From Naegleria gruberi (Eukaryota): a stretch of DNA of 64,000 nucleotides. How positions within the stretch are numbered: position 1 is the stretch's first letter; the number at the start of each line of letters is the position of its first letter. The notes under the pieces were generated by a model. That model saw only the letters and a program-made list of their open reading frames with translations, made no database searches and had not been told where the DNA came from. Shown here one piece after another: positions 2,638 through 53,186 of the stretch. The position numbers were made by a program, and so were the translations under genes. The DNA lies in assembly GCA_000004985.1 (NCBI GenBank), contig GG738874.1. One strand, written 5' to 3'.

Positions 2638-5600
2638 TTACATTTGGTGGTTGTGAATAAACTCTTCCATGGATCTTTGATTTTCATCTCTTTGTGGAGC
2701 TTTGAGTTTGATAATCTTAACAAACTCTGGATCCTTATCGACAATGGAAACATCTTGTGGAGTAATGATAATGAGCTGTCTTGTTGGATGTTTGGCTTTA
2801 GCTGTTTTCAAAATCAAATCCATGGCAGTCTTTCTGTACATATTATCCATGAACACATCAAATTCGTCTACAGCTCTAAATGGAGTTTCAACAAGTTCCC
2901 AAATTGAAAGTAAAAAGCTCACAGTTGTGAAAGATTTTTCTCCACCAGACAAAGACTTGGCATCTTTAACAGTTACATGACTACCATGAGTAGCCATATG
3001 AATAATAAATTTAAGGTCTCCATCCTCAACTTCTATTTGCCCAGAGTGACCCTTTTGACTCATGTAACGACCAAAGAATTGAGATACAGTAGAAATAGCA
3101 GAGGATCTAATTGCCAGCATGGTTCTAGTTCTGGAATTAACACCCTCTTTGGCCATTTTAAGGGCATCACGGCAAACCTCTAAGTGTAGTTTCTTTTCGT
3201 CATATGTGCGTTTATAGTCAAGATAATCTTTCTTGACATCTGAAGCATTGATATTTCCAAGTCTTTGTTGTTCTCTATCTATCAACTTTTTAATTGCATC
3301 AATTCTATTTCCCAGTACTCTAGGATCTGCATTGGTTTCTATATATGGACAACCATCTGAAGCAGTATCATGACTTCGATCCATCAACTCCTTGCTTAAG
3401 GTCACTTCTCTTTCCTTCTTTTCTAGTTCTTGCCTGTAACTGAAAATCTCATTATCCATTGTACGACTATTACGATTCTCATCTTCAATTTGTTTCAAGA
3501 TGTTAAGTACCTCTCTATCACGGGTTTCTTTTTCTTGTTGTGCCTCCATAACACTTTGTCTGCTTTCTGCTGCTTGTTGGTTGAGTTCATTCAATTCAAT
3601 CTTTAAATCCTCCATTTTCTTCTCTTCCTCTTTAAGTCTTTCTCTATTAGAGGCAATCTTGTCTTGGCAAATTTTAATTTTACCCTCAAGCTCTTCAATA
3701 AACTGTTGATCGTTGTCTTCCTCATTTGCTATTTCATCGATATCCTTCTTTTTCTTGTTTATAACTACTTTCAGTGAATCGATTTTTTTTGAGGAAGTTT
3801 TAATGCTATCAGTCAACTTGGAAAGACTTTCATATAGCCTATCTGCTTCAGAACGGAGTCTTTTCTCTGTCACCTCTACTTCTTTAACCTTTTTTCTGAG
3901 TTCTTCGGCAGCTTTCACTCTTGCTTGAATTTCTTCTTCCACACTCTTAGTCCATAATTTACTTCTTGGAGCATTAGCAACATCTGTCACAGCACTTCCA
4001 CCTTTTCTAAAAACTCTTGTACCTGTAATGGTAATAGCCTCATATTGTGGGTATTGATCTATAAATGATTGTGCTTCTTTAAGATTTTGAATGAGCACAT
4101 TTCTTTCAACTCTAGACTGGTTAATAAGCATATTAATTAATGTTGATCTGAGAACCTCAGTATCATCATACTTCAAAGGAGTGCTCCTAAGTGCATTCAA
4201 ATCTACATCTAATGTATGATAAATAGTGGTATGACCGTGAGGGAGAACCTTACTTAAATCATAAACCGAGTTGGTATATTGCTGAATGATGTGCGTAAAT
4301 TTGACACCAGTTTTCTTCTTGATTCTGTTCAATTCTTCTCCGTCTTTGAAATTATCAACAATAAATCCATTTAAATTTTTGATAAGAAATTGCTCAATTG
4401 CAGCGGCCCAATCTAAATACTCTTCTTTAACGCTTAAAAGCAATCCCAAAGGTCCTATTGGCGGCTTAGAAAAATTCTTGCTCTTGCTTAGTTCAGAAAG
4501 GAAATTTTTCATTTGTGCTCCTCCCACCATTGCAAATTTATCAGTTCTACTTTGCTTGAGTTTACTCTCTTCATCTTGTAATTTTCTAATATCTTCCTCT
4601 ATACTGCCTCTTTCATGTCTTGTCTGATTTTGTTGAGTAGTCAATTTCTCCCTGTTGACCTTAATGCCTGTGGCTTCTTCTTCGTATTGTTTCTTATTTT
4701 CTTCTATTTTGTCGATATCTGATTGAATTTTATCTATTTCCTCCTGTTTGCTCTTGATAGCTGACTCTTTATCAGTCTTATTCTTTGAAAGTGTTTCATT
4801 TTTGTTTCTGTCGAAAAGTTGAATTTCTTGTTCCAGAGCAGTTATTTCTCTATTGATTTTTTGTCTAGTTTGCTGAGAATTTTTTGCTCTAGTTTCAATA
4901 TCCCTTTTCTTGTTAAGCACATTGCTAGCCTCTTGGTTTAGCAGGTAAATTTTTTTGCCAATACTTTCAATCTCTTCATCAATTTGGAACTTCCTAGTTG
5001 TTAACTCTGAAATCCTAGTCCCTGAAGATGAGTTTTTCTTCTCAATTAGTTCATCTAAACTTCTTTTAAGTGCATCTCTCAATTTGACCTCACCTTCATA
5101 CTGAACCCTGTTTTTATGGTAGATAGCCCAACCCCTTTCAGATTGTAAAGCAGTCATATCATTTCTAAGCTCATCTATCCTTGTTGTTTCTTTGTAAAGG
5201 TCTTCTCTTTTTTTTAATTCTTCTGTTGATTCTTGAAAAGCGCTTATTTTATCAGCATACATATCTTCCATAATCTTATTGTTCTTGTTTGCTTGAGCAA
5301 TATTTTCCTCCATATCTTTAATTTGAGTCGCACGCAGGAAAAATTGATATTTCTTGGCCTCAGAAGATCCGGCCAAAAATTCTCTACTGATATCTTGAGT
5401 CATGCAGGTGGTAGGATTTTCTATTTGAATATTGAAAGAGTGTAAAATGATTGCCAATTCCTTGCTAGATTTTGAAATGGTCTTTCCTTGACTATTTTGA
5501 ATTTTGAGAGTAGTGCTACCTGCCTTGGAAATACCCTTTACAATAATAATGGATCTTCCATATAGTTCTTTCTTGTATGCATCTCTTCCTTGATTTCTGA

Positions 5601-6003: not shown

Positions 6004-7257
6004 TTTACTATGTACAAATAAATAAATAAATTAATGATGATATTCCGTAAAGTGATAATTGTAGTAGAAAGTTTAATCAACTTTAATAGGCTTTTGATGT
6101 CCTCTATGATGTGATGTTGTCTCCACACAATTAACGTATTTTTTTTGTTCTTCCTCCTGCTGGATTTGTGCAACGAAGAAAACGAATAGATTTGTTTTTT
6201 TGTTTTGGCGCCAATCACATTTTTATGTCTATCCATTAACTCTTATCTAACATAACTTTTTAATCTCACTATACTAAGCACCTTGTAACAACAGGACAAT
6301 TTTAATAACCTTCAATACTTCCAAGTCCCTACCGATGCTATGTAAAGCAAAATAGTCGTGCTTCATCATCACTTCCTTCAAATCAGAGAAAAAAAAGCTT
6401 TGTGTGCATACCGTTCACTGTTTTTGTAAGCACCAAAGAAATTGATTAACAACCACAAAACCAACAACAATTAATATCATCGTCATCATAATAGTACAAT
6501 CTTATCTCGAATATATTAATATATTTATTATTACATAATAGTGGAGATGAGTAATAATCAAGCAGTTGTAGCTGGAGGTAAAAGAAATCAACAAGATGAA
6601 AAAACAAATGTAACAACAAATAATAATAATAATAGAAAGGAGAATGGTAAACAACATACTGATGATCATAGGAGTGATGATAACGCTTCATCTGAAAAAC
6701 ATTATATTGTTAAAAAAGGTGATTTTTCCTCCGATAGAACAATTTGTCATATGATGACTGAGAAGAAGTAGGTTTTAATCTAATTGAATTTAAATCTTGA
6801 ATATTTGTTTAGAAATAATGATAGAGTATTTTCAGTGATAGTAGAACAATCAGTTGTGTGTGGAATTATTGATCATACATATTCCGATCATAATAACGAG
6901 GTTAGTTTGACAAATATTCAATTCGAATATTCATTATTTGTTGAAGGTTATTGGATTGCTAGGTGGATTTTTCGATGAGAAGAGTTATGTTGTGTACATT
7001 AGTTGCTTCAAAGCTCTCAAGAGGGATATTGGAAATATTGCAATTGATGGTGTTGAATGTGATCCAAATGAGCTAATCAAAGCCCAAGAGTTTTTCCAAG
7101 AAAAGTAAGTTATTTACAATTTGTGAATTTCTAATTTAATGAAATTAATAGAGATTTGATTTTTTGTGGATGGTATCACTCTCAGTAAGTACAATATATT
7201 GACGACAATTTAATATTTAATATTATATAAAGTCCAAGGATACCACCTTTTCCATCT

Positions 7258-19263: not shown

Positions 19264-21153
19264 TTAAACAATTTCAACAGTTCCCATGTTGAATCCACAG
19301 TCCCCATTTCTTCCTCCTTGCGTACCAACAGATACAATGACGAAATCTAATCTAATTTTGGTTCCATTCAAAGTTCCCTTATAAGTGGCAACTCTACCAT
19401 CTTCCCACTTTGCAGTGACATCCATGAAATTGTTCAAGAAGGTTCCAGAGTATGTCTTGGCATATGATTGTCCAGCATTCTTATTCTTTCCTGAAACATT
19501 ACCAAATTCTACAAAATTCAATATAAATTTCTTAGAGCTAAAACTTACTATCAACATTGAAAGTCATCTTCCAACCATCTACTTCAGAATTCTATAAACC
19601 TTATTAGTTTTGAATAATCCTTAAAAAACTTACACATGATGAGCCATTCCATTTAGTCCAAAATGTTTTACCACTGATATTGAAAGACTTGGTTTCTGAT
19701 GGACTGCTACTAGTTTCAAATAATGTTCCAGTATTAAATCCACAATCTCCAACATGACCACCTTGAGTACCAACAGCAGTAATGGTAAAATCAAGTCTGA
19801 CCTTATTTCCAGTGACAGTTCCTTTATATGTGGCTGTTCTACCATCATCCCATCTAGCAGTAACATCCATGATATTATTTCTAAAAGTTCCACTATAATG
19901 CTTTCTGATGGAATTTTTACTATCATTCTTATTACTTCCAGAAACATTTCCGTTTGCTTAATATGTGTAAGTCCGAATAAAGATGAAAATAACCTACCAT
20001 CAACTTCAAATACCATTTCCCAACCCTCTACAGCAGAATTACAACCTAAAAGATGTAAATTAGAAATATAAATCTTAATACTTACCAGCCCCATTCCAAC
20101 GAGTCCAATTTGTAATTCCGTCCTTTCCACCTCCAATTCTGTAAAACTTATTCTTTTGTTGAATTGGTTGTACCATAGGTTGAACCATTGGTTGAACTAC
20201 AGGTTGTACTATTGGTTGTTGTTGATATACAGGTGGTTGTTGATACATTGGTTGTTGCATTTGGGGTTGCATTTGTTGTTGATATGGTGGTTGTTGACCA
20301 TATGGAGGTTGCATTGGATAAGAAGGTGCAGTAGGTTGTCCAAAAGGTTGATAAGGATTAAAGTTTTGTTGAGGAACAGTTGGTTGTTGTGGAAACATTG
20401 GTTGATTGGTAGTTGGATAAATTGGTTGATACATTGGTGGCTGTTGTTGCATTGGTTGTTGTTGTCCAGTTCTTCTAAAACAATCACCATTAGGCAATTG
20501 CCATGTATTAATATCCATAGTTTCAACCTTAAGAATTTGTTCACTTCCTTGATTTTGGAAAACCAAATACAATACAAATACATTTCTATTGTTATCACGA
20601 ACAGTGTAGGTATCACAAATTCTTCCATCGGTTTGATTTTTCAAAACAAAATGTCCTCCTTCATGCATAGTACATTTCCAAACCTTTAATTTATACAAAA
20701 TGTATAAAACAACAATTATTTCAAATACCTACCTTTCCAGAATTTTCGGTAAAATCAGCTCCGATCAAAGGAGGAACATCTTGAATAACAGTTGAAGCTG
20801 GTTGAGACAATCCAGTTGAATAATTCATAGAATGAATTCTAGTAAAGGTCTCATTAGTTGCTACTAATTGTGACCCATCAACTGAAGGAACAAACTTCAT
20901 ATTGGCATGTCCATCAAATCTTTGTAAATTAATATATAAATTTTAAAATTGTCATCAAACTATGAAACACCTACGTTGCAAATAAGACCCATTGTAATCC
21001 CCCGTTCAATGGCACAGCTATACCAGTAGCATTTCTATTAGTACCATCTTGAACCCATTGGAAGGTATTACCGAATTGTGTGGCTCTCCAAATTCTTCCT
21101 GATCTTTCAATCCACTCACCATCTAGTCTTGGTGCAACATTACCCATTTTCAA
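19264..21153 (-). CDS. Multi-exon protein with repeated beta-rich (lectin-like) modules and a Pro/Gln-rich linker (at least 6 exons)
   Basis: The gene starts 'MGNVAPRLDGEWIERSGRIW...'. Exons are joined by GTAGGT/GTAAGT donors. The ~50-aa module '...MDVTA(R/K)W(D/E)DGR(T/V)ATYKGT..G.K(V/I)RLDF.I..VGTQGG..GDCGFN(T/M)GT' is repeated, as is 'W.(K/R)WNG(A/S)'. Exon 20075..20698 encodes a P/Q/M/Y-rich linker 'QQQPPMYQPIYPTTNQPMFPQQ...VQPMVQPMVQPIQQ'. Confidence 0.45.
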
Positions 21154-38867: not shown

Positions 38868-40611
38868 TTAGAGATTGGATTGAAGTTGGAGGATAACAGT
38901 CTTGAGGGAAGTCCATGCCTTCATTCCCTCTTCTCCTGCTTCTCTACCAAAACCAGATTGTTTAACACCACCAAATTCGGCAACATGCAAAACATTGTGA
39001 TAATTATTGATCCAACAAACTCCACATTTGATTCTGTCAGAGAAGGTGAACATATTGTCAACATTCTTAGTGAGAATGGCAGCTGCCAAACCAAATTCAG
39101 TATTATTACATCTGGTGATAACTTCATCGAGAGTCTTCCATGGCTTCAGAATAGATTGAACTGGACCAAAGATTTCTTCTCTAGCAATACGCATATTATC
39201 ATCAACCTTATTTAAATTGAACAGAGAAAAACAAGTTAAATTATTGTGTGTTAGAATTGAGATAATTGTCAAAATAAACTTACATCATAGAAAATTGTTG
39301 GCTTGACGAAATAACCCTTAGTAGGTAAACCTTCAGAATCACCACCAATTAATAATTTAGCACCTTCCTTTTTACCAATTTCAATATAGCTCTTAACTCT
39401 GTCATATTGTTCCTTGTCAACCAATGGTCCAATATTAGTTTCATCATTCAAATTGTATCCAATCTTGAAAGTGGCGACATGTTCCTTGAGCTTTCTAACA
39501 AATTCATCATAGATATCAGCATGAACAAATGTTCTACTTCCAGCAGTACAAGCTTCACCATTATTATTGAAAATACTGAAAGCAGCAACCTTAACAGCTT
39601 CATCAACATTGACATCAGGACAAACAACAACAGGTGATTTACCACCGAGTTCCAAATGGACTTGTTTCAAATTAGATTCGGCAGCTCCCTTCATGACAAG
39701 ACGACCAACTTCAGTAGATCCTGTGAATGCAATCTTACTGACCTTCTTGTGACTGACGAGTGGAGCACCAGCATTTGGACCATCACCCATAACAACATTG
39801 TAAACACCCTTTGGAATACCAACCTTTTGACAAATGTCAGCAAGTTTGAGTGCAGTCAATGGAGTTTGTTCAGATGGCTTCAAAATGACACAGTTACCCA
39901 TAGCCATAGCAGGAGCAACATTAACCAATGAACACCACATTGGGAAGTTCCATGGAGAAATAACTAGACAAACGACTCAATTATTAAATTCTAATAATGC
40001 TACCTACCACCAACAACACCAACTGGGCTTCTTTGAGTATAAACGTGGAATTTCTTATCAGTAACACAAATTCTTCCACTCAATTTATCAATCCATCCAG
40101 CACTATATCTCCAAGTATCGGTAATACTCTACATTTCCACAAAATAATAATTAATTTTAAATTGTCATATATCCACAAAAACATTCCACAAAATAATTAA
40201 TTGAAATTAATTATATCAATACTACTCCGCATCACATCATCAACCTACTTTAATAACATAACGGTTAACTCCGATAGGTGTACCATTATTAAGTCCTTCC
40301 AACAAGGCCATTTCCTCAACTTGTCTATCCCATTCATCAGCAAGTTTATAAATAAGTTCTTGTCTCTTTTGTGGTTCCATATTTCCCCATTCTCCATTCA
40401 ATGCTTCTTCAGCAGCTTGAACAGCCAATTCAACATCTTGTGCACAACCATCACTAACACTACACAAAACTTGTTCCGTAGCTGGACAAATCAAGTCCAA
40501 CTTTTTTCCGCTCTTACTCTCCACAAATTCACCATTGATGAATTGTTTGAGTTGGGAAGGTTTGATGGCTTCAAATTGCTTCAAAACTTGTACGTGGGAA
40601 ATGTTGCTCAT
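38868..40611 (-). CDS. Aldehyde dehydrogenase (ALDH1/2-like), about 5 exons
   Basis: The N-terminus is 'LKQFINGEFVESKSGKKLDLICPATEQVLCSVSDGCAQDVELAVQAAEEA'. The core is 'ELGGKSP' and 'FNNNGEACTAGSRTFVH' (catalytic Cys), with 'EEIFGPVQSI' at the C-terminus. ORFs 40240..40611, 39269..39940 and 38868..39272 are linked by short GT-AG introns. Confidence 0.8.
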
Positions 40612-41478
40612 TTTTTTTCAATTCAATTTAAAAATATTTTTGGATTTTTATTTTTTTATGAATATTTTAGGTTTTACGATTTAAGATAGCATTATGTATA
40701 AAACAAAAACAATACACTTTAAATTATTAATAGAAAATTTTAAGATTTTTATGAGGGAATTTTTATACAATATGTACTTCTACTTCCTTAGTTGCCTTAA
40801 TTGGTTCGAATCTATACAGGTGTATAATGGAAGTGAAGGCGCTGAAGCACGCAACGAAATGAATGAAGGAGTTAGCTGAAGAGATTTTCTCTAATGAAAA
40901 GGGAAAATCTGTTGTGTCGTAAACGATAATACGAGAAGAAGCAGCGTGCTTATTGATTTGGATATTTATAAGAAATTTCCATTTTCCAATAGGCATGATC
41001 AAATTTTAAAAACCTTTAACTCTAAAACATTTCAGAAACAGATCGTGTGAGGGGTTATTACTTAGGAATTAAATTTTAGAAAGGAAGTTGGGAATAAAAT
41101 CAGAATACAACCCTATCTCTGTAACTCTAGCGGGTTGGTCCTCTTGAGCCAGAATGAACTTTGATTCTACTAATTCTGAATGTGATACCACTACTATTGC
41201 TGATCACAAAGACAAATTCATTGGGGTTTCCATTTTCAAACAGAATTCAACCTATTTAGAAATGGTGGAGCCAAGTCGGTCCTATCGCTTCTTGTTTACC
41301 TAGAATAGAATGATCTTTATATTAAGGGAAAACGCATTCGATTATCTCTCTTTAATCTCTTTTGTTTTGGCTCCGCTTCGCTGTTGCGAATGAATCAAAA
41401 TTCGGGTTAAAAGCTTGATTTTCATTCTCTGCATACTTTTCACAAATAAAACAAAACAACTCAACAATAAGCAGTAAG

Positions 41479-41808
41479 ATGCAAAGCGTTTTTAAGGTTC
41501 AATCACAAAACTTGATGGCGGTTCAACAAATTCAAGTCTACCTCTGTACACTCATAATCTACTTGCTTAATTCAATGTATAGGTCCCTGGTGTTCGATTT
41601 GGAGGAGTTCTTCATCGTTCATCACTACTCGACATCATTGGAGATTGGCAATATTATGAACACTGAAGAGAAGCAACAATTGAGAAGATTGTCCCTTATT
41701 GATGAGCAGGGATTTATGGATGAGTTATTGTTGAGTTGCTCCGAGGATGAGCAATTTAATTGTTGTCAATGCCTCTGTGGTGCTAACAAATCACAACAAC
41801 TCTCCTAA
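41479..41808 (+). CDS. Hypothetical small protein (109 aa)
   Basis: Isolated ORF in an otherwise non-coding 1 kb stretch; the C-terminus is Cys-rich ('FNCCQCLCGANKSQQLS'). Weak support. Confidence 0.2.
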   Translation: MQSVFKVQSQNLMAVQQIQVYLCTLIIYLLNSMYRSLVFDLEEFFIVHHYSTSLEIGNIMNTEEKQQLRRLSLIDEQGFMDELLLSCSEDEQFNCCQCLCGANKSQQLS

Positions 41809-41973: not shown

Positions 41974-44229
41974 TTACTTGAATACTTTTACAATTTGAGT
42001 TATTGGTTTTCTACAGGTAGGACATGATTTGTTAGTGAGCTTGTTGGCACAGCCATCACACATTATCATGTGACCACATGGAACCAAAACTACATTAATC
42101 TCCTTATCCATACAAACGATGCAGTGATTATTTTCTTCTTGCTGCTCGTGGTGATGATCAGTAGGTGTGGTGATTTGAGAAATATTGGCTGGTTCTGGAA
42201 TTCTTTCTTCCTCTGCAAGCCAATCTCTATTAGTAAAGATGGATGGGTCCTCTGTTTGGATTCTTGAATTGGATGGAGTTATTCCACTATTAGAAGAAGA
42301 GGATTGATTGTTGTTGTTTGATTGACCTGTGTGTTTTTTTCTAGTTTGTACAATTTCTCTCTTTCTCTCACCGGCAAGGAATGCAGTTCTGTTTGACTTT
42401 TTCATTCTGTAGAGAAGTGAAGAGAGTTTGTCTGTTTCTCTCATTGATGAATCATTTTCACATTGTCTCAAATCTTCATCTAGGTCTTGAGTATTGTTTA
42501 CAAATGCATTCATTTCTTCTTGCTGACCGTATGACTTGGAGACTTCTTCCAAGAGTTTGTTCATACTCAAAAGTTTCAATCTGGCATCTCTAATTTTGCC
42601 ACTTTCAGCAAGAATGGAGCTTTGTAAAACTGCATTTAAGGACAATACAGAAACATCTACATTTTCTAAGGAAACACTTCTGTCAGATGTAATCTTAACT
42701 GGTTGATTAACCACTCTCACATATTTGCATCCGTTTGATGAGGCAGTATAGTAAATTTGTGCTTGAATCAATCCCTTATCCTTCTTATCATCTTTTACTT
42801 CCATTTCAATGGTAACATCTGTCTCAGCTGTTGCACTGCTAATTGATTGAGTAACCATTGAATACTTATCCAATTTAGATACCTCCTGATTCTTTGGTGA
42901 TATTGGATTGGAGAAGAGCATTTGTACTTTAACATCGGTTGCAATAACTGGATTATCAATAATTTGTCTCATTTGCCTTCTTAATTCAACTGGTTTTACA
43001 ATGTTTGTCAAACCTCCAGTATTATCAGCGAGCTTTCCAATTAATGACAAGTTACAGTTTGAGCCCTCAACACCAAAAACATTAATATTAATGCCATACT
43101 CGCAGGATAAGTTTGCAATCTTTGTGCAACACTCTTCTTGATCCTTGATACTTTTAGCTCTCTTTGAAATTTCCTCACTAATACCAGCCAAACCTGTTGT
43201 TGCAACTCCGTCAGTGCACAGGATAATTTTGCTACCTTTTTGCTGACTTGCAATACCCAAACTAACAAGTAAGGCAGGGAACAGTGCTGTAGCACCATCT
43301 TCTGCAATTGAGTAAATATACTCAATCAAATTATCATTGGCAAGTGAAACATTGTTTAGAATAGAGGTTCTATAAGATTGTCCTAACTTGAACAATCCTT
43401 CGAAATTATCAAGTAACACAGCTGGGACACTAGCTCTAGTTTGTGATCTGGCGTCACCAATAATTTGCACATTGCTTGAGAAGGTAACAATGGCTATTCT
43501 CTTATTGGGAGATTCTCTAGCTGTTTCAGTAACTTGAATATCTAGAGCCATCTTGAGACAGTCCATTCTAGAAACATAGGATGAAGATCGACTTTCGTTT
43601 GGAAGAAATTGATTATGAACAGAAACTTCAGATTCTAATCCCAATTCTCTCAGTAAACGTCTATTCTTTTCTTGTTGGTCGGATTGTCTCAAATCCAAAT
43701 TAAGAACAGAGTAGCTTGGTAATTGCTCAGATTGACACATACTGCCAGAGATATCAATACAAAAAACTAGTAAGCCGTCATCATCATTTACAGAACTCTC
43801 TTCCAACTTGTGTTCAATCATTTCTGGAATGGATGAAACATTGGAAGGTAATACATTTTCAGTATCGCAAAATGAGCATTTCCAATGATTTCTCTTTTTT
43901 TCACCATTTAACGCAGCTTTACAATTTGAACAGGTAACAAGAGGGCCTAGAGCTTTTGGACATTCTGCTAAAAGGCCATTCATACACAAGGCAGCAACAT
44001 TGGCATCAGATTTTGGATGTTTGATAGTTTGTTCGTTTGAAAGATCAATAGAGGATGAACAAGCTTGTGAAACTGTTGAGGCAGTCTTTTTTTCACTCTT
44101 CTTGAAAAGTCTCGATAAGAAACCTCCTCCACTAGACTTTTTTTTGCTTGTGGAAGATGATACTGAGCTACTTTGGGCATCATCGAGAGGAACATTTGAA
44201 ACAACTATTTGTTTTCTATAAGAATCCTC
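41974..44229 (-). CDS. vWA-domain RING-type E3 ubiquitin ligase (zinc-ribbon N-terminus, vWA/MIDAS domain, C-terminal C3HC4 RING); the frame is open upstream through a relic Ras switch I/beta2 segment to an acceptor at 44229
   Basis: The zinc ribbon is 'CSNCKAALNGEKKRNHWKCSFCDTEN'. The vWA MIDAS motif is 'LLVFCIDISGSM'. The RING is 'CIVCMDKEINVVLVPCGHMIMCDGCANKLTNKSCPTCRKPI'. The first ATG is at 43983, but the frame has no stop back to 44229, where it starts 'EDSYRKQIVVSNVP...'. Confidence 0.65.
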   Translation of the reverse strand, partial: EDSYRKQIVVSNVPLDDAQSSSVSSSTSKKKSSGGGFLSRLFKKSEKKTASTVSQACSSSIDLSNEQTIKHPKSDANVAALCMNGLLAECPKALGPLVTCSNCKAALNGEKKRNHWKCSFCDTENVLPSNVSSIPEMIEHKLEESSVNDDDGLLVFCIDISGSMCQSEQLPSYSVLNLDLRQSDQQEKNRRLLRELGLESEVSVHNQFLPNESRSSSYVSRMDCLKMALDIQVTETARESPNKRIAIVTFSSNVQIIGDARSQTRASVPAVLLDNFEGLFKLGQSYRTSILNNVSLANDNLIEYIYSIAEDGATALFPALLVSLGIASQQKGSKIILCTDGVATTGLAGISEEISKRAKSIKDQEECCTKIANLSCEYGININVFGVEGSNCNLSLIGKLADNTGGLTNIVKPVELRRQMRQIIDNPVIATDVKVQMLFSNPISPKNQEVSKLDKYSMVTQSISSATAETDVTIEMEVKDDKKDKGLIQAQIYYTASSNGCKYVRVVNQPVKITSDRSVSLENVDVSVLSLNAVLQSSILAESGKIRDARLKLLSMNKLLEEVSKSYGQQEEMNAFVNNTQDLDEDLRQCENDSSMRETDKLSSLLYRMKKSNRTAFLAGERKREIVQTRKKHTGQSNNNNQSSSSNSGITPSNSRIQTEDPSIFTNRDWLAEEERIPEPANISQITTPTDHHHEQQEENNHCIVCMDKEINVVLVPCGHMIMCDGCANKLTNKSCPTCRKPITQIVKVFK

Positions 44230-44318
44230 CTAATAACATTTGTTTGAAACATGATATTCAAAGAAATTCACTTACACTATAATAATAACATTCAGTAATA
44301 TTCAAAGAAGCAACTTAC

Positions 44319-45111
44319 ATTGTTGGGTCGTATTGTTCTACGAACACATTTTGAATGAATTGTGTGCAATAAGCACTTTTTCCTACACCACCAGAGCCAA
44401 CAATAGAAAATCTGTATTCATCCAATCTTCCACACATTCTTACTAGTTCATGAATAGGTTCGTCTACATTAATCCTTTGTTTGGCACTTGTTTCAAAATA
44501 AGGAATGCCCAAACGAAGTGCAACTTCCTTAACTTGTTGTTTTGACACTATTCTCTCCTCTTCCAAATCACTCTTGTTTGCAATAAGTACACAAGGAAAT
44601 GAATCAACATCCTTTGTCCTCAAAATTTGTTCCCAAATAGTTTGACAATCTTCCAACGAACTTGAATCTGTTATCGAAAAAACAATAAGAAAACCATATG
44701 ATGTTCTATAGTATTGATCTCTCAAACTACTATATTCTATTGTTGAGTGAGTGCAAAGAGGTTAGCACACTTGTTAATAATGAGAGACAACAAAAACCAA
44801 CCTTCTTGTCCAGCAGTATCGAGTAAATCAATTAAAGCTACATGATCGGAGCCTCCAGTAGTATTACTTTCACCACCAACAGAAGAATATCCAAGCTGTT
44901 TTCTTCTAGAATGTGTGTATGCCTTCTTTAATGAGTGAGACTCTTCCAATAATCGGAGAGGAAAGAAATCATATTCTTCATCCTCTTGTTGGTCAGTCTT
45001 CTTCTTGTTGTGATACAATGTTTTGGTAGCCAATTGTAGAGACATTTTCTTTAAACTTTTTAATAAATTAAAATAATGATGATTAACATAAACATGATGG
45101 TTGTTGTACAA
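44319..45111 (-). CDS. Ras-family small GTPase with a permuted motif order (G3-G4-G5 followed by G1-switch I); exons ..44802 and 44736..44319
   Basis: Exon 1 (the ATG at 45045 or 45111 is ambiguous) reads 'MSLQLATKTLYHNKKK..EEYDFFPLRLLEESHSLKKAYTHSRRKQ...ALIDLLDTAGQE' and has no P-loop. A phase-1 donor lies at 44801 and an acceptor at 44737. Exon 2 reads 'EYSSLRDQYYRTSYGFLIVF...LIANKSDL...FETSAKQRINVDEPIHELVRMC' and then 'GRLDEYRFSIVGSGGVGKSAYCTQFIQNVFVEQYDPT', ending at a GTAAGT donor at 44318. Confidence 0.7.
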
Positions 45112-45353
45112 TATCTAACAACGGGTAAAACTGAGAACTATGGTTCCATCATGTTCTAATGTAACTCTGAACAATATTTTGAAAAGTCACTATGATGAGA
45201 AGAGATATTTTATTTTTTAAAATTCTTAAAATAATTTTTAATAATTTTTAAAAAGCAAAATAATTTGTGTGAATAGGCAGAAATGAAACTACCGTTACAA
45301 ACAATACCATCTATTATTATCAACTAACTGAAAAAATATTCCTCACATCAAGA

Positions 45354-46335
45354 ATGCTAACACGAAGCAAGAGAAACAATCTGCAAAACAAGAGGAGACT
45401 CTACTCTGAAGCCATTAAATATTACTCTTCATCCGAAGAATCAGAAGAGGACGATGAAACAGAAAGTGAACAAGAAGATAACCAACCAAATAATGGTGAA
45501 AATGCTCAAGGAGATGATGAATATAATTATTCTTCACCCGAAGAAGAATTCGCATCAGATATTTCCAATGATGATGAAACACCAAATATCAAACACAACA
45601 AAAAGAAGAGAAAACGCAATTCATCACCGGAAGAGGAATCCAGGAATACTTTTGAATCACCAATTATTATTGATGATCAATCCTCTCCTATTGATTTATT
45701 AACACCTCCCACCACAACAACAAATTCAAAATCAAATTCTTCACATCATTTAGGTGATGAAACAATAATTCTCTCCGATTCATCTGAAGTTTCAGTCATT
45801 ATTGATATATCAGATTTTTCTAACAACAATAGTTCGTGCTCATTGAATCAATGTGCAGATGATCATCAACATGGTAATTCACCATCACCACCACTGAATT
45901 ATCCTCCTTCACCACCACATTTTCAAGAGATGATGGCGCAACCAACTTTAAACGAAAAGTTTGCATCATCACCATCAGCAACATGTTTGGAAAATAAAGC
46001 AGCTGAAGGTAGTGAAGATCATGAACCCCCATTGTTGGAGCCAATTGAAGAGTTTCAAGTGAATACTGAACCAGAAAGTCAATTAGAAGATGATAACATT
46101 TCTTTGGACTTTAATATCCTCAAATTGGCAGGTCAAAAGTCTTGTCACTAGCGAACTAAAACAAATTTTAGATCTGGATCCATTGGATAATGGTGAAGAA
46201 TCGAATAATGAAGAAAATGTTGGGAAGTTACTGGCTCATTTTGGGGAAACAGATAGAGAATTTCTTGCACAATATGCTAAACTAGATGACTCTAAGAAAC
46301 AGAAACTCTTAGAATATATTGCAACCCTGCAATAG
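45354..46335 (+). CDS. Acidic low-complexity nuclear protein with SIM-like hydrophobic/acidic clusters; exons 45354..46131 and 46172..46335
   Basis: A 40-nt GT-AG intron (donor 46132, acceptor 46171) joins ORF 45354..46151 to ORF 46090..46335 in frame ('..ILKLAG|DLDPLDNGEE'). The protein has S/E/D-rich stretches and 'IILSDSSEVSVIIDISD'. Confidence 0.4.
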
Positions 46336-47824: not shown

Positions 47825-47898
47825 TTACAGCGAGCGGGGCTTGAACCCGCGACCTTAAGCGTGTTAGGCTTACGATCTAACCAACTGATCTATCGCTG
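47825..47898 (-). tRNA. tRNA-Val (anticodon AAC)
   Basis: On the minus strand: 5'-GCAGCGA TA GATC AGTTGGTTA GATC G TAAGC CTAACAC GCTTA AGGTC GCGGG TTCAAGC CCCGC TCGCTGT A-3'. It forms a clean cloverleaf with a 7-bp acceptor stem (one G-U pair), a T-loop TTCAAGC, and AAC as the anticodon at positions 34-36. Confidence 0.85.
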
Positions 47899-48019
47899 CT
47901 TACACTCTTATCATCTAAAATTTTAATACTATTCGTATCCCAATTCCTAAATTAACCAAAAACTGGAAATAGATAAGACCCATAAAACCAAATAAATCCA
48001 GAGCTTATCAAAGAAAAAA

Positions 48020-52929: not shown

Positions 52930-53010
52930 CGCGGTCTACAGGATTCGAACCTGTGCGGGTCGCCCCAATTGATTTCTAGTCAATCACCTTAACCACTCGG
53001 TCAAGACCGC
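52930..53010 (-). tRNA. tRNA-Ser (anticodon AGA)
   Basis: On the minus strand: 5'-GCGGTCT TG ACCG AGTGGTTAAGGTG ATTGA CTAGAAA TCAAT TGGGGCGACCCGCAC AGGTTCGAATCCTGT AGACCGC G-3'. It has a 7-bp acceptor stem, a long Ser-type variable arm and the anticodon AGA. Confidence 0.85.
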
Positions 53011-53104: not shown

Positions 53105-53186
53105 CGCAGACTGCAGGATTCGAACCTACGAAGGTTTCCCCAACAGATTTCAAGTCTGTCGCCTTAACCACTCGGCCAAGTCTGCT
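53105..53186 (-). tRNA. tRNA-Ser (anticodon UGA)
   Basis: On the minus strand: 5'-GCAGACT TG GCCG AGTGGTTAAGGCG ACAGA CTTGAAA TCTGT TGGGGAAACCTTCGT AGGTTCGAATCCT GCAGTCTGC-3'. It has the same Ser-type architecture as the tRNA about 95 nt upstream, with anticodon TGA. Confidence 0.85.

Follow-up and report, generated by a model that had tools for sequence, protein, structure and literature searches.

The circularly permuted Ras (CPRas) gene of Naegleria gruberi appears to contain an exon that is only one nucleotide long. The gene lies on the minus strand of the window, by which we mean the whole 64-kb stretch of DNA analysed here, and the base in question is a T at position 44276. This T is probably an exon in its own right, placed between introns of 42 and 46 nt and completing the codon of an invariant isoleucine; judging from the sequence, we put the probability of this reading at roughly 70%. 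The GC content of the window is 34%, in keeping with the 33% published for N. gruberi. The parts of the gene, as we reconstruct it, are listed below (slashes within sequences mark exon-intron borders).

45045-44802, minus strand: CPRas exon 1, starting with the ATG at 45045 and ending ..GGA CAA GAA G in phase 1; covers the N-terminus and the G3 motif DTAGQE
44801-44737, minus strand: intron 1, 65 nt, GTTGGT..CTAAC..AATAG; joining restores DTAGQEEYSSLRDQYYR
44736-44319, minus strand: CPRas exon 2, encoding G4, G5, G1 and G2 up to ..YDPT plus AT; ends in phase 2
44318-44277, minus strand: intron A, 42 nt, GTAAGTTGCTTCTTTGAATATTACTGAATGTTATTATTATAG, GTAAGT..TATAG; possible branch site TACTGAAT
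44276, minus strand: proposed one-nucleotide exon T, which would supply the third base of ATT, the Ile codon that corresponds to HRAS Ile36
44275-44230, minus strand: intron B, 46 nt, GTAAGTGAATTTCTTTGAATATCATGTTTCAAACAAATGTTATTAG, GTAAGTG..TTATTAG; possible branch site TTCAAAC
44229-41974, minus strand: CPRas exon 3, 751 open codons; EDSYRKQ.., Zn-finger-like CxxC pairs, a VWA/Sec23-trunk-like region, a C-terminal RING and the stop

Exons 1 and 2 amount to 662 nt, which is 2 modulo 3, so exon 2 (EYSSLRDQYY...GSGGVGKS...EQYDPT) ends in phase 2 with the codons TAC GAC CCA ACA AT. Exon 3 begins in phase 0 with GAG GAT TCT TAT AGA AAA CAA (EDSYRKQ). The gap between them is 89 nt long (44318-44230) and consists of 42 nt, the T and 46 nt. 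The T is directly adjoined by AG upstream and GT downstream (TATAG/T/GTAAGTG), and both flanking introns are complete. Left unspliced, the reading frame runs ATG TAA, with the stop inside the donor of intron A. With all 89 nt removed it continues as ..YDPTMRILIENK and stops after 7 codons, giving a product of 228 aa, and with 88 nt removed and the T kept it yields a 972-aa product carrying ..YDPTIEDSYRKQ.. The original prediction had stated the two phases, the early stop on direct joining, the TAA inside the donor as the end of an unspliced Ras reading frame, and the internal TATAG/T/GTAAGTG with its halves of 42 and 46 nt; frame arithmetic and the sequence itself agree with it on each of these points. 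Within the gap, only the removal of 88 of its 89 nt joins the two reading frames, and a kept T turns the split codon into ATT, that is, Ile. The mRNA junction predicted by the one-nucleotide exon is ..CCCAACAATTGAGGATTC.. (CGACCCAACAATTGAGGATTCTTAT).

Two minor features of the same region may be recorded here. An imperfect direct repeat of 17 nt (15/17 identical) is present at 44215-44231 and 44112-44128 of the window, 103 nt apart; one copy (AGGAGGATTCTTATAGA) overlaps the acceptor of intron B together with the codons for EDSYR, the other (AGGAGGTTTCTTATCGA) the codons for GGGFLSR. This repeat is probably due to chance. A Rfam scan of 43000-46000 returned a single sub-threshold snoRNA-like match, away from the junction.

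One guide to the correct junction is the conservation of the protein. Among 120 CPRas homologues, the motif could be located in 95, and in all 95 of them D-P-T-I-E-D-S is invariant; the residues that follow are nearly so: Y in 90/95, R in 90/95 and K in 93/95. The orthologues of Willaertia and N. lovaniensis are intronless at this place, where they read ACAATTGAAGAC and ACCATTGAGGAT in protein and CCAACAATTGAAGAC and CCAACCATTGAGGAT in DNA, respectively. The string ACAAT + T + GAGGAT matches exactly the uninterrupted, ancestral exon sequence of these orthologues, in which the codon is ATT. The invariant isoleucine favours ATT over the ATG (Met) that a non-canonical intron of 88 nt would produce, and the invariance of the whole motif counts against any solution that drops EDSYR. 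The reading preferred in the original prediction, two introns around a single T restoring YDPT-I-EDSYRKQ, is supported by the ATT of the intronless orthologues and by the invariant Ile and EDS. It is further backed by a second strain, in which the splice sites and the T are kept, and by purifying selection on exon 3.

The second strain comes from the metagenome run ERR1078381, which has been assembled by two pipelines (ENA ERZ929261 and Logan ERR1078381, project PRJEB11402; contigs L001 and L002). Over about 4.8 kb compared, the two contigs are 99.2-99.3% identical to the window. They carry the same AAT/GTAAGT, TATAG/T/GTAAGTG and TTATTAG/GAG, and the only differences across the junction are a 3-nt TAT insertion in intron A (45 nt there) and a G>C change in intron B. 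Within the 2256 nt of exon 3, the window and L001 differ by 9 synonymous substitutions and 1 nonsynonymous substitution, with no indel. If a single base of exon 3 is changed, the outcome is synonymous in only 21% of the possible cases; the probability of at least 9 synonymous changes in 10 is then 7e-6. The first ATG of exon 3 is codon 83; two of the synonymous changes, at codons 14 and 65, precede it, and the first 82 codons are homologous to the orthologues even though they contain no ATG. The TAG of the acceptor is itself an in-frame stop, so that the reading frame of exon 3 opens exactly at the acceptor; exon 3 would therefore have to be entered by splicing from exon 2. These patterns point to an exon 3 that is translated in the EDSYRKQ frame and is under purifying selection. 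As for the sample in general, ERR1078381 holds an N. gruberi-like organism whose coding regions differ from the window almost solely at synonymous sites, and in the 3' flank of the gene (window 39920-41640) the strains differ by many small indels, with a hypervariable patch at 40618-40626.

The two proposed introns are typical of their surroundings. The likely introns in the window, inferred from the continuity of reading frames only, measure 40, 41, 44, 44, 48, 49, 49, 52, 53, 56, 62, 65 and 77 nt, and most of them have GTAAGT donors and TAG or CAG acceptors; lengths of 42 and 46 nt are therefore ordinary within this range of 40-77 nt. Introns A and B have loose yTnAy-type branch candidates 15-20 nt upstream of the AG (TACTGAAT and TTCAAAC, respectively), which by inspection are comparable to those of the other introns in the window. 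Taken by itself, the motif YAG-N-GTAAGT is not significant: the window has one occurrence, and 0.64 are expected. An internal AG-(A/C/T)-GTAAGT that leaves both halves at least 38 nt long was seen in 2e-4 of simulated random 89-nt introns of the same composition, and in 2.6e-3 of them with a looser donor. In the CPRas gene, the internal AG-N-GTAAGT coincides with the place where one base is missing.

Another gene in the window offers a parallel. An apparent intron of 128 nt (7105-7232, plus strand) resolves into a 47-nt intron (7105-7151), a 33-nt micro-exon (7152-7184) and a 48-nt intron (7185-7232). The micro-exon encodes ..KDLIFCGWYHS of a JAMM/MPN+ motif, and Pfam JAB is matched with an E-value of 1.6e-9 when it is included and is not matched when it is left out. 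On this predicted structure, short introns in close succession are evidently spliced in N. gruberi. A further candidate intron of 96 nt is present at 19538-19633 on the minus strand, with a second GTAAGT 11 nt before the acceptor (..GATAGTAAGTTTTAG); its acceptor and the exon structure around it are uncertain.

The product of the gene, CPRas, starts with a Ras domain in circularly permuted order and continues with a VWA-like region and a RING finger. Pfam matches the Ras domain in two stretches and the C-terminal RING as PF13920 (E=2.7e-16). In the VWA region there are only matches below threshold, to Sec23_trunk and Sec23_BS, although a DISGS (DxSxS) motif is visible, and the orthologues have faint VWA_2 matches. 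In a BLASTP comparison with human HRAS, residues 70-181 correspond to HRAS 51-161 and residues 186-231 to HRAS 1-46, and the disputed codon aligns to HRAS Ile36 in switch I. The order of motifs in the Ras-like GTPase part is thus G3-G4-G5-G1-G2, as required for the cpRAS domain of the CPRas family. The closest database relatives are homologues named 'circularly permutated Ras protein', from Willaertia magna (46% identity over the full length) and Naegleria lovaniensis (51%). A beta2-like sequence is found at both ends of the cpRAS domain, HSRRKQL at the N-terminal end (protein residues 44-50; window 44880-45045, minus strand) and DSYRKQI at the C-terminal end (residues 223-229; window 44190-44229, minus strand), and the same holds for Willaertia and N. 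lovaniensis. Two such ends are as expected if the permutation came from a tandem duplication followed by truncation.

The protein product itself has already been published. Elias and Novotny (2008) corrected NgrCPRas by hand, and the supplement of their paper (PMC2430557) gives it as a cpRAS-VWA-RING protein that reads ..EQYDPTIEDSYRKQIVV.. The portion of NgrCPRas in the supplement, from the N-terminus to well past the junction, is identical to our reconstruction including the Ile (..EQYDPTIEDSYRKQIVVSNV..). This identity settles the membership in the CPRas family independently of the weak VWA matches. The correction consisted in a redefined exon-intron structure, and the JGI model of the gene was flagged as an incorrect prediction; in the available part of PMC2430557 only the corrected protein is reported, and no description of a 1-nt exon or of the exon structure of NgrCPRas was found there. 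The one-base exon is implicit in the protein of 2008.

In the splicing scheme that we infer, the Ile codon of the switch-I/G2 motif YDPT-I-EDSY would be interrupted twice, by intron A after its second base and by intron B after its third. Both would be ordinary GTAAGT...TAG introns of the size usual in this genome, each with its own plausible branch region, and intron definition would account for their recognition. Positions -3/-2 of the 5' splice site of intron B are the AG of intron A, and the 3' splice site of intron A overlaps the stretch to which U1 has to bind for intron B. Because the overlapping sites of the two introns could not be occupied together, their removal would have to be sequential, in a manner resembling recursive splicing. 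Either order is predicted to leave a normal context: AAT-T/GTAAGTG (CAACAATTGTAAGTGAATTT) if intron A goes first, and TATAG/T-GAGGAT (TTATTATAGTGAGGATTC) if intron B does. Once both were removed, the mRNA would read ..CCA ACA ATT GAG GAT.. and encode the full 972-aa protein.

Several other explanations of the 89-nt gap have to be weighed. One-nucleotide exons are extremely rare, which gives our reading a low prior. The most serious is a single canonical GT-AG intron of 103 nt, used as the main form or in a minor isoform, that would run from the same donor at 44318 to an acceptor at 44216 (..TTCTTATAG/A, or ..GGATTCTTATAG/A) and would turn the following stretch into intron.

44229-44216, minus strand: 14 nt, GAGGATTCTTATAG, the codons for EDSY and part of the R codon; intronic if the acceptor ..CTTATAG/A is used with the donor at 44318

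The original prediction had called the frame discrepancy explicable only by a 1-nt micro-exon, a noncanonical splice or a frameshift; the two-intron option stands, and the word 'only' does not, since this canonical in-frame intron also exists. It is a GT..AG pair in phase 2 with 746 open codons downstream, it would need nothing unusual of the spliceosome, and its product still has an Ile: YDPT-I(ATA)-KQIVV, without EDSYR, with the predicted junction ..CCAACAATAAAACAAATAG.. (CGACCCAACAATAAAACAAATAGTTG). This product, however, would lose E, D and S, which are present in 95/95 homologues, and Y and R, each present in 90/95; in structural terms it would lack the end of switch I and the start of strand beta2 (HRAS 37-41). 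The 14 supposedly intronic bases still encode EDSYR in frame with exon 3, identical to the orthologues, which would have to be a coincidence. Two well-formed TAG acceptors, 42 and 89 nt from the donor, would also have to be passed over, and there is no good yTnAy branch motif between 44230 and 44216. Moreover, 103 nt exceeds all the inferred introns in the window but one, and that one, of 128 nt, consists in fact of two introns with a micro-exon between them. We rank the 103-nt intron second, after the one-nucleotide exon, and consider it unlikely; it could occur in a minor isoform.

A true frameshift in the gene, either as a young pseudogene or as a split into a truncated cpRAS (YDPTM followed by a stop) and a separately expressed VWA-RING protein, would agree with the ATG TAA end of the unspliced reading frame, with the early stop after removal of 89 nt (predicted junction ..CCAACAATGAGGATTC.., CCCAACAATGAGGATTCTTA), with the flagged JGI model and with the two reading frames that prokaryote-style gene callers report. 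The recent frameshift separating two genes, which the original prediction had kept as a fallback, is nevertheless disfavoured by exon 3: its 9:1 ratio of synonymous to nonsynonymous changes without indels (P=7e-6), which includes synonymous changes upstream of the first ATG, and its first 82 codons, which lack an ATG yet are homologous to those of the orthologues and stay open right from the acceptor, argue against a pseudogene or a split gene. In addition, the cpRAS domain would end at Thr35-Met without the invariant IEDSYRK, and the architecture is kept in the second strain, with changes confined to the half-introns; we regard this explanation as quite improbable. A single non-canonical intron of 88 nt, G/TAAGT..TTATTAG (TA-AG) or GTAAGT..TTATTA/G (GT-TA), would restore the frame and keep EDSYRKQ (YDPT-M-EDSY, predicted junction ..CCAACAATGGAGGATTC.., CCCAACAATGGAGGATTC). 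Its dinucleotides are non-canonical despite the perfect GTAAGT/TAG pairs at hand, it places Met where 95/95 homologues have Ile, and it leaves the perfect internal TATAG/T/GTAAGTG, with its chance of 2e-4, unexplained; little speaks for accepting it. One-base frame problems are a common artefact, and a base lost from an exon edge by sequencing or assembly error would leave a single ordinary intron in the real gene. The exon edges, T and splice sites are, however, identical in the independent assemblies of ERR1078381, made by two pipelines from a slightly different strain, so that an error in the reference assembly is very unlikely; there is also no homopolymer at the exon edges, and the extra internal donor/acceptor pair would be unexplained. 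Removal of the 89 nt followed by programmed -1 frameshifting or transcript editing has nothing in its favour beyond the frame discrepancy itself. No slippery heptamer is present at CCA ACA AUG AGG, the stop is only 7 codons on, and we know of no nuclear insertional editing in Naegleria; we give this last possibility hardly any credence.

Two special forms of splicing were also considered and rejected. Nested splicing, as in stwintrons, fails on the ends of the 89 nt, both of which are G, and no canonical GT..AG nesting removes 88 nt. U12-type ends have no supporting sequence features. A pattern covering all the spliced forms of the exon 2-3 junction found 0 matches in the JGI metagenome and metatranscriptome contigs; in the same contigs, patterns for relatives of exon 3 matched, with no true relative among the matches. 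In the protein collection, a first search found, near 100% identity, only the exon-3 reading frame of the second strain, no junction-crossing protein near 100% identity was found, and a search centred on the junction gave generic Ras proteins and CPRas relatives.

The introns at the Ile codon are absent from the CPRas genes of Willaertia, N. lovaniensis, Acanthamoeba, Balamuthia, Capsaspora and Pecten; an ancient shared intron position is ruled out by these six examined genes, and the pair would be a gain in the N. gruberi lineage. Introns do occur nearby: Willaertia has a phase-1 intron 14 codons upstream of the Ile codon (L003, about 3583-3625), N. lovaniensis a phase-0 intron 12 codons upstream (L004, 3637-3704), Acanthamoeba an intron at Y/D (L005, 1720-1841) and Balamuthia introns at Y/D and after DSY (L008, about 1920-2124), and Capsaspora and Pecten have none. 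Their positions in this G1-G2 region differ (a Val codon, F/I, Y/D, after DSY), and all of them fall into a coding stretch of about 45 nt. To judge by these positions, this looks like repeated independent gain and loss, or sliding, of introns around the region coding for switch I.

Introns A and B also resemble each other, in the following shared blocks.

44298-44309 (intron A) and 44254-44265 (intron B), minus strand: 12-nt block TTCTTTGAATAT, an exact repeat at nearly the same distance from the donor
44283-44292 (intron A) and 44231-44240 (intron B), minus strand: block AATGTTATTA, shared, near the acceptor

The similarity is modest. Only the collinear exact blocks are strong statistically: within the cores compared they add up to 20 nt, a value that ranks highest among 105 intron pairs and that 3/20000 shuffles reached. 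Global alignment of the two introns is not significant (116/2000 shuffles, P about 0.06), and local alignment is marginal (128/5000, P about 0.03). The intron pair is probably a lineage-specific gain, with one intron, as the shared blocks suggest, a local copy of the other. A simple tandem duplication is rejected as the origin, since an exact copy of an intron plus 1 nt adds an exonic base and an extra 1-nt change is needed; TRF reported no tandem repeat. When introns A and B were searched with blastn-short across the 64 kb of the window, only their mutual blocks of 10-12 nt and short matches at chance level came up, and a mobile, introner-like intron family is rejected because no further copies of either intron exist within the window. 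The duplication origin is speculative. We offer only tentatively the fuller scenario, in which the T would be a constitutively spliced one-base exon that arose through the copying of a newly gained short intron to a place one nucleotide from itself ('intron doubling').

To our knowledge, very few genes have a one-base exon; the examples are APC11 of Arabidopsis, CYP621A of Fusarium and a mitochondrial case in a placozoan. The T of CPRas is a probable new case of this class. The one-nucleotide exon of CYP621A was established by comparative analysis and SRA reads and is conserved in 20 species (Nelson and Syed 2026, PMC12940212). As in CPRas, the gap there is about twice the normal intron and has an AG-N-GT inside it, a conserved motif gets one of its codons completed by the single base, the expected length is read from a relative that lacks the intron, and automatic annotation fails (PMC12940212). 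The two cases differ in that CYP621A is conserved in 20 species and confirmed by SRA reads, whereas the CPRas exon is seen in the DNA of two strains of one species; in CPRas, the base is the third position of an Ile codon and the introns are only 42 and 46 nt long and mutually similar. The single-nucleotide exon of APC11 is constitutive, required for the frame and proven by cDNA sequencing and mutagenesis (Guo and Liu 2015, PMC4674806). The model of its authors, intron definition with sequential, recursive-like removal, is the mechanism that we propose for CPRas (PMC4674806). The base of APC11 (A333) lies 333 nt into a formerly annotated intron of 422 nt, so that its flanking introns are far longer than those of CPRas (PMC4674806), and its host is a plant, in contrast to the heterolobosean host of CPRas. 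By analogy, the kind of inference made for CPRas is one that reads or experiment have confirmed in CYP621A and APC11.

Two other splicing systems are related in part. In the long introns of Drosophila and vertebrates, recursive splicing uses ratchet points (AG/GTAAGT), 'zero-nucleotide exons' that subdivide these introns and leave no base in the mRNA. The CPRas junction is like a ratchet point in having a 3' splice site beside a 5' splice site, with a first step that would regenerate or expose the site for the second and an obligatorily sequential removal. It is unlike one in that a coding base is kept between AG and GT and the whole unit is only 89 nt long. The T of CPRas is not a ratchet point, although it may work like one. 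In the stwintrons of fungi, one intron sits within the donor, acceptor or branch site of another, and consecutive splicing reactions are needed. CPRas would likewise have two packed spliceosomal introns needing consecutive splicing, but they stand side by side with one exon base between them, which stwintrons lack. No paper linking Naegleria with micro-exons was found in the literature searched. What is distinctive in the CPRas case is its compactness, the mutual similarity of the introns and the host lineage.

If our reading is true, no protist (here a member of Discoba) would have shown a 1-nt exon before, and this one would be the most compact known, with introns close to the shortest inferred in the window. 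Nature would also provide in it a case where there is no room for two spliceosomes at once, so that an order of removal is forced, and the layout of 42 + 1 + 46 nt would make an unusually clean natural substrate for the study of sequential use of adjacent splice sites. A one-base exon in a heterolobosean would show that the ability to splice such exons is widespread among spliceosomes working by intron definition. A minor 103-nt splice without EDSYR could add an isoform that lacks the effector loop. Genes with one-base exons are systematically broken by gene finders, and the JGI model of CPRas is a case already flagged as wrong. Finally, introns A and B, mutually similar and absent from the examined orthologues, bear on how new introns arise.

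Elsewhere in the window, three tRNA genes are present, all on the minus strand: Val(AAC) at 47826-47899, Ser(AGA) at 52930-53010 and Ser(TGA) at 53105-53185, the two Ser genes being 95 nt apart.
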